Positions 18,593 to 56,972 of a stretch of 64,000 nucleotides of DNA are shown piece by piece. The notes beneath the pieces are model-generated. The model saw only the letters and a program-made list of their open reading frames with translations. It was not told the DNA's origin and did no database searches. Position 1 is the first letter of the stretch. Each line of letters opens with the position of its first letter. The position numbers were made by a program, and so were the translations under genes. Source of the DNA: Eledone cirrhosa (Eukaryota). The DNA lies in contig OZ024746.1 of the NCBI GenBank assembly GCA_964016885.1, positions 53,444,001 through 53,508,000 of the forward strand, written 5' to 3'.

Positions 18593-19323
18593 GTGAAGGA
18601 CATATAAACTATATATTATGTTTCCTGAATTGTGAAAATGGTGGTGTATACAAAAACCATAACATTATTTTGCTTCTCATTTATAATATTTCTCTGCACA
18701 CAAGCTTCTTTATCATACACAAAAAATACTTTACCACTACAACCTCCATAATACTCTTGATTACCCGCTTAAAGTGCTTGTATTGCATATAAAACCTTGC
18801 CGCACAATAATCATATATAAATAAGACACACGTGCATGCCTCACGTGTAACCATTGCATGCAATAACTACTACAACTGACTAACAAACTATCCTCTTGCA
18901 TTATCTTCGTAAACTGCCGATGTATTTTAATTTTAATTTTGCTTCGATTCTGTTTTAATATGATTTTAATTTTTGAATTTAAATTGCCATGCAAAAATAA
19001 TATAATGGTTGTCACCACACTGTGCATCAATATATACAAATGTATCTGTATGTCTCTTGTGTTGGAAAGGAGGTCATTTATGTAAACAAACATTGAAAAA
19101 TTGCTCCAAAGACTCCTAACCTCGGTTTGCATGAAACAATTGTAAGCTAATAAATGGTTTGAACAGAACTTTGATTCATGTGAATTCTATATAACTGCTC
19201 TGCAGAACAACTGATGTTATTACATTGAGCTATTTATCTTACTGGTAATAAGGTAGTAATATATTACTGTCTTTCAATGTTTAGGGTTTAAAATATATAT
19301 AACATAAATGGTATCCTTAATAC
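18590..19323 (+). mobile_element. Family D pLTR-like element with degenerate hammerhead at 19101-19149
   Basis: Homologous to 15502-16103; core is CCAAAGA (G5A) ...GAAACAATTGTAAGC; flanked by (TA)n. Confidence 0.7.
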
Positions 19324-24746: not shown

Positions 24747-26887
24747 TCATCATCATCATCATCGTTTAACGTCCGTGTTCCATGCTTGCATGGGTTTGGA
24801 CGGGAGTTTTCCCACTTGAGGCAAGAGTGGTTGTCTTGCTCGCATAGGACTGTCTGGCGGGTTTTCTACAGTTCGATGCCCTTCCTAACACCAACCACAT
24901 TTACAGTGTGGGGCTGGGAGGTTTTTACTGTGTTGCCTACACGGCCACATTACAGCGTGGACTGTCTGGCAGGTTTTCTACAGCTGGATGCCCTTCCTAA
25001 CACCAACCACATTTACAGTGTGGGACTGGGAGGTTTTTACCGTGTTGCCTACACGGTCACATTACAGCGTGGACTGTGTGTTTTTTTGTCTTGACACCTA
25101 CACGATCTCATTTGTTTCGGCCTGGATTTTGTGGCACCAGCATAACTTTACATTGAAAGGGGCAGTGTGGATGGGGTGAGGGTGGTGGGACGGGGGTGTA
25201 TTTTGTTAGAGATGCCTACTGACTGTAGTAGGTTTTACTTTGTATTTAGGTAACGCGGGTCTTCTCTATTATTGAGTACCGCCAAAGCTCTCAGTCCAGT
25301 GACATTGTCTTGGAGAGGTGTAAGTGTATGAGGTCGGAATTTATCAGCTCGTCCCAGGTTTTTCTGGGTCTGCCTACTCCGTGGCTACCGTCTATCTTTA
25401 TTGCCCTGCACTTTGTTATACAGCTGTCGTCTTTCATGCGCATCACGTGACCATACCAACGTAGCCTTCTCTCGAGTTAACAACATCTGATCCCTCTTAT
25501 TTCTAATTTTTTTCCATGGGCAGCCGGTCTTGAACTCCACTGTTATAGCCTGAAGGGCAATATAAATAGTAGGGGCTCAGAACAGAGCACTGATGTACAC
25601 CAACTTTTACATTAAACTCATCACTATATTCGTTGTTAATTCTAACCTTGCTGACTGTTTCTTTATACATGGCTTGTATAGCTCTCACAACCCATTCGTC
25701 AACACCTAGTTTTCTAAGAGCCCACCAGATAATGGAGCGGGGGACTCTGTCGAAGGCTTTCTCCAAGTCAACAAAAGCTAAGTATAGGGGTTTACTTTTA
25801 GCTAGGTACTTCTCCTGTAGTTGTCGTACAATGAAAAGAGCGTCTGTGGTACTTTTGCCTGACACAAACCCGAACTGCATTTCATCTAGATCAATTCTCT
25901 CTCTGATTAGTTGCGCTATTACTTTTTCCGTGACCTTCATGACCTGGTCGATTAATTTAATGCCTCTATAGTTACTCCTATCTAGGGCGTCTCCTTTACC
26001 CTTGTAATAGTTAATGATGATGCTGCTACGCCAGTCCTTCGGAACAACCCCATTCTGTATGACTTGGTTTACTATCCGGGTGACCATGGTGTGTCCCACC
26101 GTTCCAGAGGCCTTCAGCATCTCAGCGACTATTTCCGAGGCCCAGCCGCCTTACCCGTCTTCATATCTTTGATTGCCTTACTTATTATACTACCTTCAAC
26201 TAACACTGCTGGTCCCTCTATTGGATCCTCTGGGGGAGACTATCCTTCTCCCATTTATTCTCCTCATTTAGTAGCCTCTCGAAGTGACACTTCCAAGCGA
26301 CCTTCTTATCAGCGTCAGTGATGGCGAGTACACCATCATCATTTAGTACACACTCCTCCCCAACAATATCACGGTTTTCCTTGACACATTGCCTAGCAAT
26401 CCTGAACACCTCACGTTTTTGGTCCTCGCGTTGTAGAACATGCTTTCCTCTGCTTCCTTTCTTGCAAAGTACACTTGTCTCCTAGCCACTTGATAGTCTT
26501 CTCTACTTCCCCCATCCCGCCATATTTTCCAAGCCTGCTTTTTGGCCTTAATCGACTCCTCCACCTTACTGTTCCACCACCATGTTACTCTCCTCCTGCC
26601 TATAGGCCTGCTCCGGCCACAGACTTCGTCTGCCGCCATCAGCAGGTTTGCTTCCAGGAATATTGTCCAACTCTAAATGCTCTTCCTTACTGTCGAAAGC
26701 ATCAAGTAATATGCTTTGAAATTTATTTCTGGCTGTGGGGTCCTTTAGCTTCCATATTTTTCTCTTGAGGATAGTCCTCTTCTGCTGTCGAGTACGTCTC
26801 GTCCTGACTATGAGGTCGCTAATTATCAGTCTATGTTGGGAGGTGCATTCTTCATGGGGGAGGGATTTAGTGTTTACAACAGTCACT
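24747..26887 (-). mobile_element. RTE-clade LINE copy 2, 5'-truncated, internal deletion removing YADD
   Basis: Same family as 16419-18542. Reaches the APE C-terminal SQHRLI motif, has QFGF and DLEKAFDRV, a duplicated ~110-bp unit in the 3' UTR and a (GAT)n tail. Confidence 0.95.
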
Positions 26888-33106: not shown

Positions 33107-34017
33107 TTTATTTTTCCTCATTTACTCTGTAACCCAGTATGAATCAATTTGTATATATTGTTTATTCTAAATGTTAGTACATTGTTAACATATTATCATA
33201 TTATTATTGTGACATCTATATTGTTTGTGTAAATTAACCGGGATTATCTATTATATTGAATTATATAATTTTATTGTTTATTATTTATTATATGTGTTTC
33301 TTGTAATTATATCATATTATTACCTCATGTATATTGGGTAGATGTATTGGTATTATTATTATTATTATTTTCACTCTTATCATGCTTATTTTTATATTTT
33401 TTTATATTCAAACTCCTAATAAGGTTTAATTTGTGTAGTTGAAGATAGATGTGCGTATTGTTGTATGTGTGTGTGTGTGTGCGTGTGCGCACATATATAC
33501 ATGTACATATTGTACCTTTTGATTTTTATTGTAATTTTAATGTTGGTAAAGGTATATTATTATAATGTATTATATTATATTACATTGTGTTATATATAAT
33601 TCCTGCTCTATATAACCACCTTTGTTTAGCTTTAGGTTATTTGCTTTGGACTATATTTGTAATATGGTTCTTAATGTTATATACATCCTTAGTTATTCTT
33701 ATTATATATTTTTATTATTTTTATTTTTATTTTTATTATATATTTTTGCAAGACTTTAGTGTATGTACACTCCATATTCTTCGGAGCTTCCGGCTTGTAT
33801 CTGCCGATATTACTTCTTGTTGTTTTAATTGCCCTGATGAGTCCTTAATAGGACGAAACATTGTCGGCTAATAAAAACTTTTGATGTATTAAAGGCTTCT
33901 TTGTTTTACTTTCTTAATTTTTTGGCTGTTTAACTGCATTGAGCTATACCTTTTACTGTCATTTCTATAATACGAAGAGGGTGTTTAACTCCAACACGCT
34001 CCAGTATTTTAATCCTT
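33104..34017 (+). repeat. PLE1 5' pseudo-LTR
   Basis: Nearly identical to 37922-38839. Confidence 0.95.
33822..33878 (+). ncRNA. Type I minimal hammerhead ribozyme (PLE1 5' pLTR)
   Basis: GCC CTGATGA GTCC-TTAATA-GGAC GAAAC ATT GTC GGC; predicted cleavage after C33865; AATAAA follows. Confidence 0.92.
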
Positions 34018-34093
34018 GTCACTGCTCCCGACCGGTTGAGCTTACTCACATATATACTGGTATTTTGGCCTTTATATATATTTATCTGACAGT

Positions 34094-48353: not shown

Positions 48354-48658
48354 TTATTGTTATACTTGGGGAGGGTCATATTTGTGTAATATTGCCAGAA
48401 TTAATAACAGAACACACTCACTGTTTGGTTGGTTTTCGCTTCTTGCTTCTGTGTCTTTTATATCGGTAATCTAACTTACTCGGTCCTCAATGTTGCCATT
48501 GACTGACCGACGGTCAAAAATAATACAGATACAATATAGACACAAACACATATATATAGTTTATCATAAATCTTTCGTTGCACATCTGCAACATCGTCAG
48601 TGGTGTTATCGTTTCCTCCTGTTGTATTATATGTCTACGCCATTTTAATTCATCGCCG

Positions 48659-50608: not shown

Positions 50609-50659
<51 letters not shown>

Positions 50660-50691
50660 AGAACAAAAGATGGTTAAAAGAGTTCCATGTA

Positions 50692-50758
50692 TTTTATTAT
50701 GCGCATTTCAAAAACAAATATCATCATGCAATAATATTTGTGTTTTCATCAGATAAAA
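50692..50758 (-). ncRNA. Type I hammerhead ribozyme (PLE2 3' pLTR)
   Basis: TTTTAT CTGATGA, long stem II (ACAAATATTA/TGATATTTGT), GAAA TGCGCA TA ATAAAA; palindromic stem III, AUA site. Confidence 0.85.
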
Positions 50759-51035
50759 CAGGAGGTTAAAAAACACTTGTGGATAGTTCAGTTTTAAATC
50801 AACATATGAGAAGTAGTTTGATGTGTGATATTGGGAAAAATATTTTATTTAGAGGGGGGGGGGGTGAAAAAAAGGAGATGAGAGTGAAGGTGGAGAGGGA
50901 GGAGAATAATGAGGAAGGATGAGATAGGAGGAGAGATGGGTGATAGAGAGAGAGAGATAGCTTTTATAACTGAGAAAGATATATTGTTTTACATAGAGAG
51001 GTTGAAAACCGTTGGAAGATAATGTATAAATTAAA

Positions 51036-51744: not shown

Positions 51745-54140
51745 TTAGCTGTATACTTTGTGAAATGTTTTATGGAATTTATGCAAGCAGATAGAAAATA
51801 AGTCAGTGCGTCTATTTATTATAGAATCTAGATTAGAGATAATGGTAAATTTTTCATTTAGACAGAGATTGCAGATTTTAGATAGAGAACTGTTCAAGTA
51901 TGAAAACGCAGAAGAAACCTTCTTCCAAAAGATGCTATGCTATATTTAATGTTTTTGTCTTTCAAGGACCATATGAGTTCTGAGAGAGCCGTGTTGGTTC
52001 TTTTAAGTTTGTATTTAAAAGACGAATGATGGTTATAAAGACAAGCTTTAAAAGAGGTGGAAGTGGAGCCAAAATAGGTGAAGGAATTGGTGTCAGTTAT
52101 AACTTTACATTCGTAAATTAAGTTTTTATCAAGACAGTGGTTGTTGAGAGGACATTTATTTTTAATAGGGCAATTGCAATTGCAATTAGAGAGATTATTA
52201 ATGAGTGACCTAGTGTTATCTATAGAAGGAATTGGATTGGAGAAGTTGTTTGCGATGGGAATAATAGTTTCTTGATTTAGAATGGGATTATGAACATTTA
52301 GCGAAGTTGTGTTTGACGTTGTATTTGGGTTTGTAGAAATTAGCCTAGGGTTTACAATGACGTCGGGAGTACTATTATTATGAAATTCAGTGTTGGAAGG
52401 AAGAGATTTAGTATTTAGTATTTTATTGTTGTGTTTAGAGATAATGTTGGAAATGTTGGAGGATGTAGAATAAGAAAATTTTATGGTGTGTTTGTTAAAT
52501 ATTTTACTATAGATATGTGAGGGAGGGAAGCATTTATTTAAGGCACTAAAGAATAATTTAGGAATATTGTTATTAATAGAGATGGAGAAAGGAGCATTAT
52601 ACCAGATTATGTTTTTGTATCTAGGTCTTTTATTAAAGTTATTGGAATGATCATGATTAATTATTCTACTGTAATTTCTTCTAGAATTTGTTTCTTTACT
52701 ATATTTGATTTTATCAGGATAGCCGGCTTTAGAAAGCGTGTTATTATAGTAATTGGCGTTAGCATCAAAGATGTTTTTATTAGAAGATAGGTTAGATATT
52801 CTTTTTCCAATATTACTAACTATAGCATTCTTGATATTAGTAGGATGGTTAGATTTAAAGTTAACATAATTTAGGTTCTCATTGTTTTTATGGTAAGGGT
52901 AATATAGGCCAGTGTCAAGATTAAGAGATACATCCAAGAAATTAGCTAGTTTGATACTGTTATCAAATTCAATTTTTAGGTTATGTTGGTTAAAGAGATT
53001 ACGTATATTGTTCTTAATAATATTAAGGTTAACTATATTGCAATTTAAGATAGTAAAGAGTCCATCGTCACGATAAATTCCACCGCGAAGTTGAGGAATT
53101 TTCCGACTCAAAGAGTTCAAAATAAAGATACCAATTAAATCAGTCAATTGGGATGAATCGGATGCTCCCATTGGGATGTCAAAGTTGTTAGAGGTATCGG
53201 CTCTGGTCCAATATTCGTTGTTGAACTCTAGGATGGTTTTACGTGCGGTGAGAATGATGTGAAGTTCATCTGTGGTGATGTCAGAATATTTAAGTGCGAA
53301 AGATAGAGCATTATTGAGAAGTGAAGGCGAAATGGAGGAATAGTAGCTGGCAATAAAATTGAACAAATTTTAGTTTGTTTTTATTATTCAATTTGTTGAA
53401 CCAGCTAATCACTTCAGAAGTACCAAACCATAAATTTAGGTTCAAAGAAGAGCAATTAGAACGAACCTGTGGGATAATTCTATCCAAGATGGCTTTACTA
53501 ACAACCCCCAGATCAGATTTAGAGGGGCGATTAATCTAACAGGTAGTTCAGTGCGAAAATTGTTTTTGTGATCATTGAGATTTATCCTCGGAGTTCTTGG
53601 GAGGAATGGTTCTGTCTTTTTTTCAATGCCAAGTTTTGACATAATCTCAGAGGCTTCAAGGTTTATGTATTCTAAATTTTCATGGTTGGTTTTACGATAT
53701 TTTTTCCTAAGTTCCTTTAGGATAAGGTTGTTATAATTATCCTTGGAAATACCATATAAGTTATTGGTTTTGTCAGAGTGGACTAAAACATTTTTTGAGG
53801 AATTTAGGTTAGAAATTGTGTTCTTGAGATTTACAAGGTGCTCTTGTCCTTTGTAAGGGTATCTCTTGAATTTAAGATTTTTTATTATTTTAGTTAACTC
53901 TTCCTCGAATTGCACTAGATTTTTGTTGGAAGGAGGATTTCTTCTAGAATTAAATAGATGATCGAGGAAGTTATGTTCTTTGGTATAGAAGTTCCCTTTT
54001 AGGCGCTGGTCATAGAAATAGGCTGTCCATCTAAGTCTTCTTACGAAGGAGTCAGTTTTTTCAATTAGAAGTTTGGTGAATTCAGATTTACCAGGTATAG
54101 GAATGTCTTTAGTTGAATTGGTTATGTTGTAATAATCCAT
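51745..54140 (-). pseudogene. PLE2 RT/GIY-YIG polyprotein, three frameshifts
   Basis: RRLRWTAYF, SDKT, PMGASDSSQ, GGIYRDDG, WYNAPF, CNCxxxxxCPLxxxC, NLIY..TYFGST, CNLC. Lesions at ~53522, ~53356 (loses the Asp of FDI) and a 5-bp duplication at 51934-51943. Confidence 0.92.
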
Positions 54141-54352
54141 GTTGTAGAAGAAGAAAGAAGTAAAAGACCACCAAAAGGTATCCAATATGAGAGTAAGCGC
54201 TCAACCGTTAAGGAGCAAGTTAATGTAGGAGGTGAGTTTTATTGTAATACAATAAAGCAATGCAGATATCGGATGAGAAGCACTCTACAGTTTGTAGGAC
54301 TGGAGTATACATAATATATAAGAACAAAAGATGGTTAAAAGAGTTCCATGTA

Positions 54353-54419: not shown

Positions 54420-54542
54420 CAGGAGGACATGATATGAAGGTTAAAAAACACTTGTGGATAGTTCAGTTTTAAATCAACATATGAGAGTTTAAAACTGAAC
54501 TATCCACAAGTGTTTTTTTAACCTTCATATCATGTCCTCCTG

Positions 54543-54609
54543 TTTTATCTTATGAAAACACAAATATTATTGCATGATGATATTTGTTTTTGAAATGCGC
54601 ATAATAAAA
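54543..54609 (+). ncRNA. Inverted hammerhead copy with G5U core mutation
   Basis: CTTATGA instead of CTGATGA; the rest is identical. Confidence 0.75.
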
Positions 54610-54734
54610 TACATGGAACTCTTTTAACCATCTTTTGTTCTTATATATTATGTATACTCCAGTCCTACAAACTGTAGAGTGCTTCTTATCCGATATCTGC
54701 ATTGCTTTATTGTACTACAATAAAACTCACCTCC

Positions 54735-54804
<70 letters not shown>

Positions 54805-54807
<3 letters not shown>

Positions 54808-55000
54808 ATAATTGTTTCTACTATTGGCACAGGGCCAGCAATTATTCCAGTGTATTACTGGTACTTTATTTTATCGACCCCGTAAGGATGAAAGGTAAAG
54901 TTAACCTCGGCAGGATTTGAACTCAGAATGGCAAGGGCCGTAACTCTATGCGTCAAAGCATGGCGTCCGACCCTCTACCGATACTGCCAATCCATCGCCC
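54805..55000 (-). mobile_element. SINE family A
   Basis: Full-length match to other copies. Confidence 0.85.
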
Positions 55001-56723: not shown

Positions 56724-56761
<38 letters not shown>

Positions 56762-56835
56762 TTGTATCCCGGGTTCAATCGGGGATAACCACAGTAAGTA
56801 AGGTACTCAATACATAGCAGAGTATAAATATTTAA

Positions 56836-56940
56836 TATAGAAATGGCTTCTACACTACCAACACTGTTTTATTCGAAGGGCTTTCCTGATGATTTCCTTC
56901 GAATGAAACAGTTCTAGTCATGTAGAAGCAATTTCTATAC
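56836..56940. repeat. ~105-bp hairpin element with hammerhead-like remnant
   Basis: TATAGAAATGGCTTCTACA/TGTAGAAGCAATTTCTATA and ACTGTTTTATTCGAAGG/CCTTCGAATGAAACAGT arms; CTGATGA...GAAAC inside. Confidence 0.6.

Positions 56941-56972
<32 letters not shown>

Follow-up and report, generated by a model that had tools for sequence, protein, structure and literature searches.

The two Penelope-like elements (PLEs) of the window, the 64,000-nt stretch of Eledone cirrhosa DNA analysed here, carry a short motif that is duplicated in tandem, with both copies (A and B) lying between the hammerhead ribozyme and the ATG in PLE1 and in PLE2. We consider it likely that these copies, each placed ~6 nt past a site at which inserted elements end, are signals that probably form bulged hairpins, are predicted to bind the RT/EN, and would set the starts of target-primed reverse transcription. 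Direct support comes from the duplication of the motif, its conservation and covariation, the two classes of ends and their register, the (TA)n that follows the ends, and the pairing of one A end with one B end in inverted insertions. The best reading of these sequences, we infer, is twin priming, in which two RNA docking sites would fix where target-primed reverse transcription begins on each of the two target strands.

By the features listed for the Hydra clade in the sections of Craig et al. 2021 (PMC8557442) that describe it, PLE1 and PLE2 are Hydra-clade PLEs and new members of that known clade. The preliminary description had called them Naiad-like, a label that we drop as the EN is C-terminal and the RW, DKT and CxCx5C motifs, the hammerhead and the (TA)n fit the Hydra clade. 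A Naiad element needs an N-terminal GIY-YIG, a C-terminal RT and no canonical hammerhead; here the domains come in the opposite order and the pLTR has a hammerhead. The ORFs of both window copies are broken, and intact relatives exist elsewhere in the 3.0-Gb E. cirrhosa genome. These relatives have a single ORF encoding an RT followed by a C-terminal GIY-YIG domain, with YRDD at 357/360 and YxGST at 693/780. The N-terminal RW(K) motif reads RWR and RWT at 37-38, its R and W being invariant and its third residue variable among 22 relatives, and DKT (instead of DKG) lies at 123 and 129 in the intact relatives. The CxCx5C linker is CNCx5C in both, CxxC is CNLC in both, and CxH was found in the PLE2 relative and in the window PLE1. 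The intact relatives of the PLE1 and PLE2 proteins are 42.5% identical over 751 positions, and a Pfam scan of the proteins matched no family. The sequence (TA)3 occurs within 14 nt of the end in 40/42 PLE1 and 55/61 PLE2 terminal copies. The PLE1 hammerhead matches RF00163 with an E value of 4.3e-6 and 31.7 bits, which is below the gathering score of 34, and that of PLE2, with a core at 50752 and a long atypical stem II, is a candidate ribozyme. The features of the two elements in the window are:

33107..34017, + strand: PLE1 5' pseudo-LTR (pLTR), 5'-truncated, with 7 differing columns relative to 37924-38839
33828..33872, + strand: PLE1 type I hammerhead ribozyme in the 5' pLTR (Rfam RF00163); the core of a second copy is at 38654
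33924..33944, + strand: PLE1 motif A in the 5' pLTR, its 5' arm 2 nt short relative to the 3' copy and relatives
34024..34041, + strand: PLE1 motif B, made up of GCTC, upper stem, TT bulge and GAGC
34094..36774, + strand: PLE1 ORF for RT and C-terminal GIY-YIG, in three frames in the window copy; intact relatives have 891-896 aa
38745..38766, + strand: PLE1 motif A in the 3' pLTR, intact
38830..38839, + strand: PLE1 3' end, an End B equivalent to 34017 and 6 nt before motif B, then (TA)n
50652..50811, - strand: PLE2 long arm, 3' pLTR end, which stops at End A, then (TA)n
51894..54140, - strand: PLE2 ORF for RT and GIY-YIG, broken; intact relatives have about 800 aa
54199..54216, - strand: PLE2 motif B
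54282..54306, - strand: PLE2 motif A, with an ACTC/GAGT lower stem, a compensatory change from GCTC/GAGC
54488..54739, + strand: PLE2 inverted short arm, which holds motif A (54656-54680) and stops at End B, 54739, then (TA)n

The motif has the consensus RCTC-Y..R-TH-GAGY-RC, the shared core being RCTC, a variable stem-loop closed by Y..R, a 2-nt bulge (TT, TC or TA) and GAGY, usually followed by ACT. The strings first reported are present at 34021-34053 (+) in PLE1 and at 54220-54185 (-) in PLE2. They lie 40 and 44 nt before the ATGs at 34094 and 54140, in agreement with the ~40-45 nt given originally, and terminal copies do stop at 34017=38839 and 54223=54739, where (TA)n comes next. Both of these window ends are exactly 6 nt upstream of GCTC. 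Of the GCTC/GAGC stem thought to enclose a near-palindrome, the stem stands and the near-palindrome proves to be a variable upper stem. The copy first reported in each element is B; the upstream copy A was overlooked, along with the second class of ends. Motif A is 90-101 nt upstream of motif B in the PLE1 and PLE2 families, and the 3' TTACTCNCATAT part of the motif is common to these two families only. In a comparison of the regions upstream of PLE1 and PLE2 (493 and 340 nt) the motif was the best local match with a score of 35, which none of 500 dinucleotide shuffles reached (maximum 34, mean 23.4). Once the motif was masked the best score was 22, equalled by 350/500 shuffles; at this chance level the flanks of PLE1 and PLE2 do not align, and the match is therefore not mere general relatedness.

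Conservation was evaluated in metagenome contigs scanned with a 16-protein alignment, from which the best 80 of 352 confirmed loci were taken. Among these, 17 junctions combined a hammerhead core with an identifiable start of the ORF, or 15 with near-duplicates removed. A strict pattern, which was refined after viewing the very sequences scored, gave 28 matches in the 15 non-redundant hammerhead-to-ATG spacers, two of these being extra or overlapping matches. Within this sample of the best 80 of 352 loci, 14/15 junctions had a strict match and 12/15 had at least two, junction L237 being the sole one of the 15 without. The same pattern averaged 0.135 matches in 200 shuffles (maximum 3), none on the reverse strand, and 1 in 20,962 nt of ORF sequence. 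A looser pattern with a downstream ATGG had 1,144 matches in the E. cirrhosa genome versus 8 for the reversed pattern, and among the 30 loci fetched from this looser set are additional Hydra ORF starts as well as several tailed A-type copies. Among the Hydra consensi in the published material of PMC8557442, we recognised by eye two motif copies in Hydra-1_Ajap, a single copy in Hydra-2_Ajap and in Hydra-2_Amil, and motif variants in Hydra-1_Obim and Hydra-1_Crog; in this material the consensi carrying the motif come from sea cucumber, coral, octopus and copepod. Three 9-mers from the 3' half of the motif occur 6 times in the supplement of PMC8557442, 4 times in Hydra consensi and 2 times elsewhere, and nothing was found in its Naiad or Chlamys consensi, where line breaks could mask matches. 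A scan of IMG/VR gave no relative. The motif is thus present in families other than the two that first revealed it, both in the metagenomic Hydra junctions and in published consensi, spanning numerous lineages of marine animals, and it is kept across proteins about 31-40% identical. In most families motif B is 31-59 nt from the ATG.

Paired changes within the motif suggest that the RNA of each copy probably forms a hairpin with a bulge. For 57 distinct copies from the + strand of the best 80 of 352 loci, two or three of which are probably chance ORF matches, Watson-Crick pairing at the first, second and third upper-stem positions occurs in 50, 38 and 31 copies, compared with permuted expectations of 28.1, 15.9 and 14.8 (5,000 permutations, none as high). 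The outer pair, scored in 53 copies from the E. cirrhosa genome near a hammerhead core, is G-C in 22, A-T in 28 and mixed in 3, with a Fisher p of 0.0055 for the copies collapsed to 20 types. In a 36-row alignment, three rows of which are misaligned, pairing holds for 94.4% of cells and the score for covariation reaches 0.393, compared with 0.173 when shuffled and at most 0.149 when slid, this score and the covariation counts ignoring the relatedness of the copies. Thermodynamic folding gave z scores of -2.78 and -1.35 for the motif A copies of the window's two elements. For motif B alone the values were -0.06 and +0.51, no better than shuffles, implying that it would need protein for stability; many B copies have 1-2 upper pairs only. 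Rfam 15 contained no family for the A/B motif when window 33700-34150, L180, L218 and L231 were searched, with weak matches only (E of at least 0.8). As far as sequence can tell, the evidence would fit RNA hairpins and single-stranded DNA hairpins alike.

Inserted copies were compared in three families of the E. cirrhosa genome, and in all three the copies stop at either of two sites, one about 6 nt before A and the other about 6 nt before B, with (TA)n following. The copies were gathered via anchors upstream of both motifs (11,095 and 5,678 anchor matches in the genome for two families), together with earlier ORF-start loci that inflate the read-through class only. The 58 PLE1 copies comprised 42 terminal copies (19 A and 23 B) and 16 read-through copies. 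Here 16/19 A ends were at 6 nt, and of the B ends 17/23 were at 6 nt and 3 at 7, with 3 variant copies showing the same junction by eye. For PLE2, the 67 copies divided into 31 A, 30 B and 6 read-through. The B ends fell within 4-9 nt in 29/30 copies (17 at 6), and at the A ends the aligner overran into TA-rich sequence, the first mismatch by eye being at -4, which is compatible with 6. The third family had 60 copies (30 A, 28 B and 2 read-through), whose ends, judged by eye, precede the motifs by 3-7 nt. Metagenomic terminal copies were few and agreed with this register, clearly for L203, L235 and L244 and by eye for others. The pile-up of ends just upstream of the motif that the preliminary description anticipated is thus present in PLE1, PLE2 and family 3. 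Its proposal of a cis RNA signal is borne out in the tie to the site where copying starts, and docking of the RT/EN stays a putative role. The commonest bases at -9 to -3 before the motif are alternating T and A, such that a nicked (TA)n strand could anneal there.

Tail-out inverted pairs were selected on position and strand, ahead of any reading of their ends. An A end was combined with a B end in 21/23 pairs of one set (binomial p 3.3e-5 vs 50%) and in 20/21 pairs of the other, a total of 41/44 with the remaining 3/44 being A+A or B+B. The automatic end caller had returned 39 A+B and 5 same-type pairs, with L145 and L166 assigned as A+B by eye. Since A and B ends are about equally frequent, only half of the pairs would be A+B by chance. 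PLE2 in the window is itself an A+B pair, its long arm ending at A (50652 = 54313, 6 nt before motif A and TA-ambiguous) and its short inverted arm at B (54739). Among the 44 pairs, upstream reach is greater for the A arm in 9 and for the B arm in 10; in 20 the two arms are within 30 nt of each other. In eight of the nine pairs with the further A arm, that arm is shorter than one unit (one pair, L139, is a three-piece locus), and in about 8 pairs each arm thus has sequence missing from the other, so that neither arm is a fold-back copy.

This asymmetry weighs on the alternative that fares best, in which priming would occur once, at one hairpin, and the cDNA would then fold back and copy itself, the other motif acting as a DNA hairpin that marks endonuclease resolution. 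Such a route likewise predicts A+B pairs, it is in keeping with the 20/44 pairs of equal upstream reach and with the clustering of inversion points near a CATATG palindrome, and its two elements, self-priming and EN-mediated resolution, have been proposed for PLEs in the relevant passages of PMC3846280 (self-priming on an antisense template) and PMC8557442 (tail and inversion ascribed to endonuclease properties). However, in 8 pairs the A arm has upstream sequence that B lacks while the B arm has the tail that A lacks, the longer arm varies (9 A vs 10 B), and arms of equal reach would likewise result from two RTs running off one RNA 5' end. We therefore regard fold-back as unlikely. The arm limits themselves cluster near CATATG in the PLE2 family and in family 3, with no such cluster in PLE1; measured from motif B, the positions are -265/-266 for PLE2 and -325 to -348 for family 3 (L127-L173, L287-L331). 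For PLE2, 14/63 arm limits are within -261 to -270. Either the 5' end of the RNA or a point of switching could underlie this cluster.

The pairing bears equally on a possible role of the hairpins as signals for RNA processing or termination, with the RNA being cut or ending 6 nt before A or B and being primed at its 3' end. Priming at the RNA 3' end is the mode used by R2. While this would account for a pair of sharply defined ends, each at a set distance from a signal downstream, RNA 3' ends formed independently should combine at random, in contrast to the A+B pairing of 41/44, and the related Poseidon RT starts internally regardless of the 3' end in the assays described in PMC11167929, making this explanation improbable. 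We give slightly less credence still to the motif being an internal promoter or a translation signal, with ends lying nearby for some other reason such as TA microhomology. The position of motif B 31-59 nt before the ATG in most families, the T/A-rich bases preceding the motifs and the internal promoter of Penelope noted in PMC8557442 are all compatible with it, but it leaves unexplained the A+B pairing and why A and B share a 6-nt register, even for PLE1 ends that have little TA homology, and the covariation speaks for a strand that folds. The motif may nonetheless have an additional function in expression beside end-setting. Finally, although PLE1 and PLE2 are relatives, leftover similarity from common descent is a very improbable source of the motif, as the flanks score at chance level and the motif persists across proteins about 31-40% identical.

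On the reading of twin priming from two docking sites, the transcript would carry hairpins A and B, and the protein, probably as two units, would bind both. The GIY-YIG domain would nick both strands of a (TA)n tract, and each 3' end would pair with the UA-rich stretch immediately 5' of a hairpin, priming cDNA there, so that the bound hairpin would not be copied. Two cDNAs of independent length would then be joined head to head to give the inverted pLTR, with the A-to-B interval, about 50-100 nt here, forming the 'tail' on one arm only. This would explain both the 'tail' and the inverted pLTR of PLEs. As the bound hairpin would not be copied, the full A+B site would be regenerated only from tandem, read-through or circularised transcripts; circular templates have been proposed from the hammerheads in the pertinent section of PMC4209133. 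It is conceivable, and we advance it tentatively as something short of an even prospect, that PLEs in general use a dimeric, telomerase-like RT/EN, two tandem RNA sites and programmed twin priming, with each subunit priming one target strand at a constant distance upstream of its site, the spacing of the sites equal to the tail length and the inverted pLTR made from the two cDNAs. If so, a ~100-nt two-hairpin RNA tag would be enough to write upstream RNA into (TA)n. The origin of the inverted pseudo-LTRs and one-sided tail of PLEs has been a question for two decades, and passages in PMC11167929, PMC8557442 and PMC3846280 call for a mechanism. This origin becomes directly testable through a specific RNA signal and two rules, one for the 6-nt distance and one for the pairing, and the motif also marks exact boundaries of Hydra elements, which is useful for annotation. 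PLE RTs are the sister group of telomerase, so that a hairpin that would fix the template start is relevant to how RTs acquired the use of an internal template.

Several further features were observed in the window. A probable end of another Hydra family, with motif A and a tail and then (TA)n at 19197, lies at 19050-19280 (+), an End-A copy of family 3 is near 15210 (15330-15210, -), the end of a further probable Hydra family is at 48600 (-), and hammerhead-like cores in an inverted arrangement are near 47771/47946 (47750-47960, both strands). A miniature inverted Hydra-type insertion without an ORF at 56750-56960 looks like another A+B pair, one arm having a hammerhead core at 56886 (+) and ending in (TA)n and the other having motif A (56823-56803, -) plus a short tail. 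Motif A with a tail also occurs alone between microsatellites at 40095-40180 (+) and 56725-56630 (-); these pieces begin 6-14 nt before the motif and are possibly B-primed cDNAs halted at the A site. An abundant, dispersed SINE-like repeat of about 190 nt is found at 54806-54994 beside the PLE2 end, with further copies in the window at, for example, 2825-3007, 42391-42578 and 47154-47337. Fragments of LINE-type RT ORFs at 16800-17468 (-) and 25503-26120 (-) are presumably RTE-like. Outside the window, an abundant family (L267, L269, L275, L277, L279, L282 and L285) has both motifs, A with a long inserted loop; its first ATG opens no Hydra-like ORF, and it would be non-autonomous or have a long leader.

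Known systems offer partial parallels. In LINE/SINE 3' stem-loops and the R2 3' UTR a cis RNA structure recruits the RT/EN, and these signals sit inside the copied region, upstream of a 3'-terminal start, whereas the putative docking motif here is outside the copied region. In L1 twin priming the second target strand primes on the same RNA to give an inversion, with starts at variable places, while both starts are fixed here. A search of literature that was largely open-access found no description of the motif, and neither the A+B rule nor a duplicated RNA signal that defines the ends seems to have been described so far. PLEs are treated for their hammerheads only in the relevant text of PMC7229834, PMC4209133 and bioRxiv 10.64898/2026.07.22.740005, and are named in a reference only in that of PMC5737381. 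The closest relatives, the Hydra clade as set out in PMC8557442, share the domain order, the RW, DKT, CxCx5C, CxxC and CxH motifs, the hammerhead in the pLTR and the (TA)n targeting, and the sections on this clade describe no motif at the ends of Hydra elements. The tails are about 50-100 nt here compared with 30-40 in those sections, and the element units are 3.9 and 4.7 kb compared with the under-3-kb norm given there.

The nearest functional parallel is Poseidon_Ac, for which the relevant sections of Frangieh et al. 2024 (PMC11167929) report in vitro internal RT initiation at two sites matching genomic ends, the interval between the two starts being equal to the genomic tail. In the same sections both target strands are cut and extended, RNA downstream of the starts is required and a dimer is predicted. 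Close to the RT starts, the Poseidon_Ac RNA (PMC11167929) shows GAAAG twice by eye, 34 nt apart and each time followed by ACAAC; as read from machine-extracted text of Figure S1, this may faintly hint at a duplicated signal with tail-length spacing. In contrast to the present elements, in which the signal lies upstream of the ATG, the Poseidon_Ac starts are inside the ORF and are associated with an 'AC-rich stem loop', and in those sections the inversion is left unexplained. They define no conserved or duplicated binding motif, whereas the Hydra elements described here carry a duplicated signal that is conserved clade-wide.
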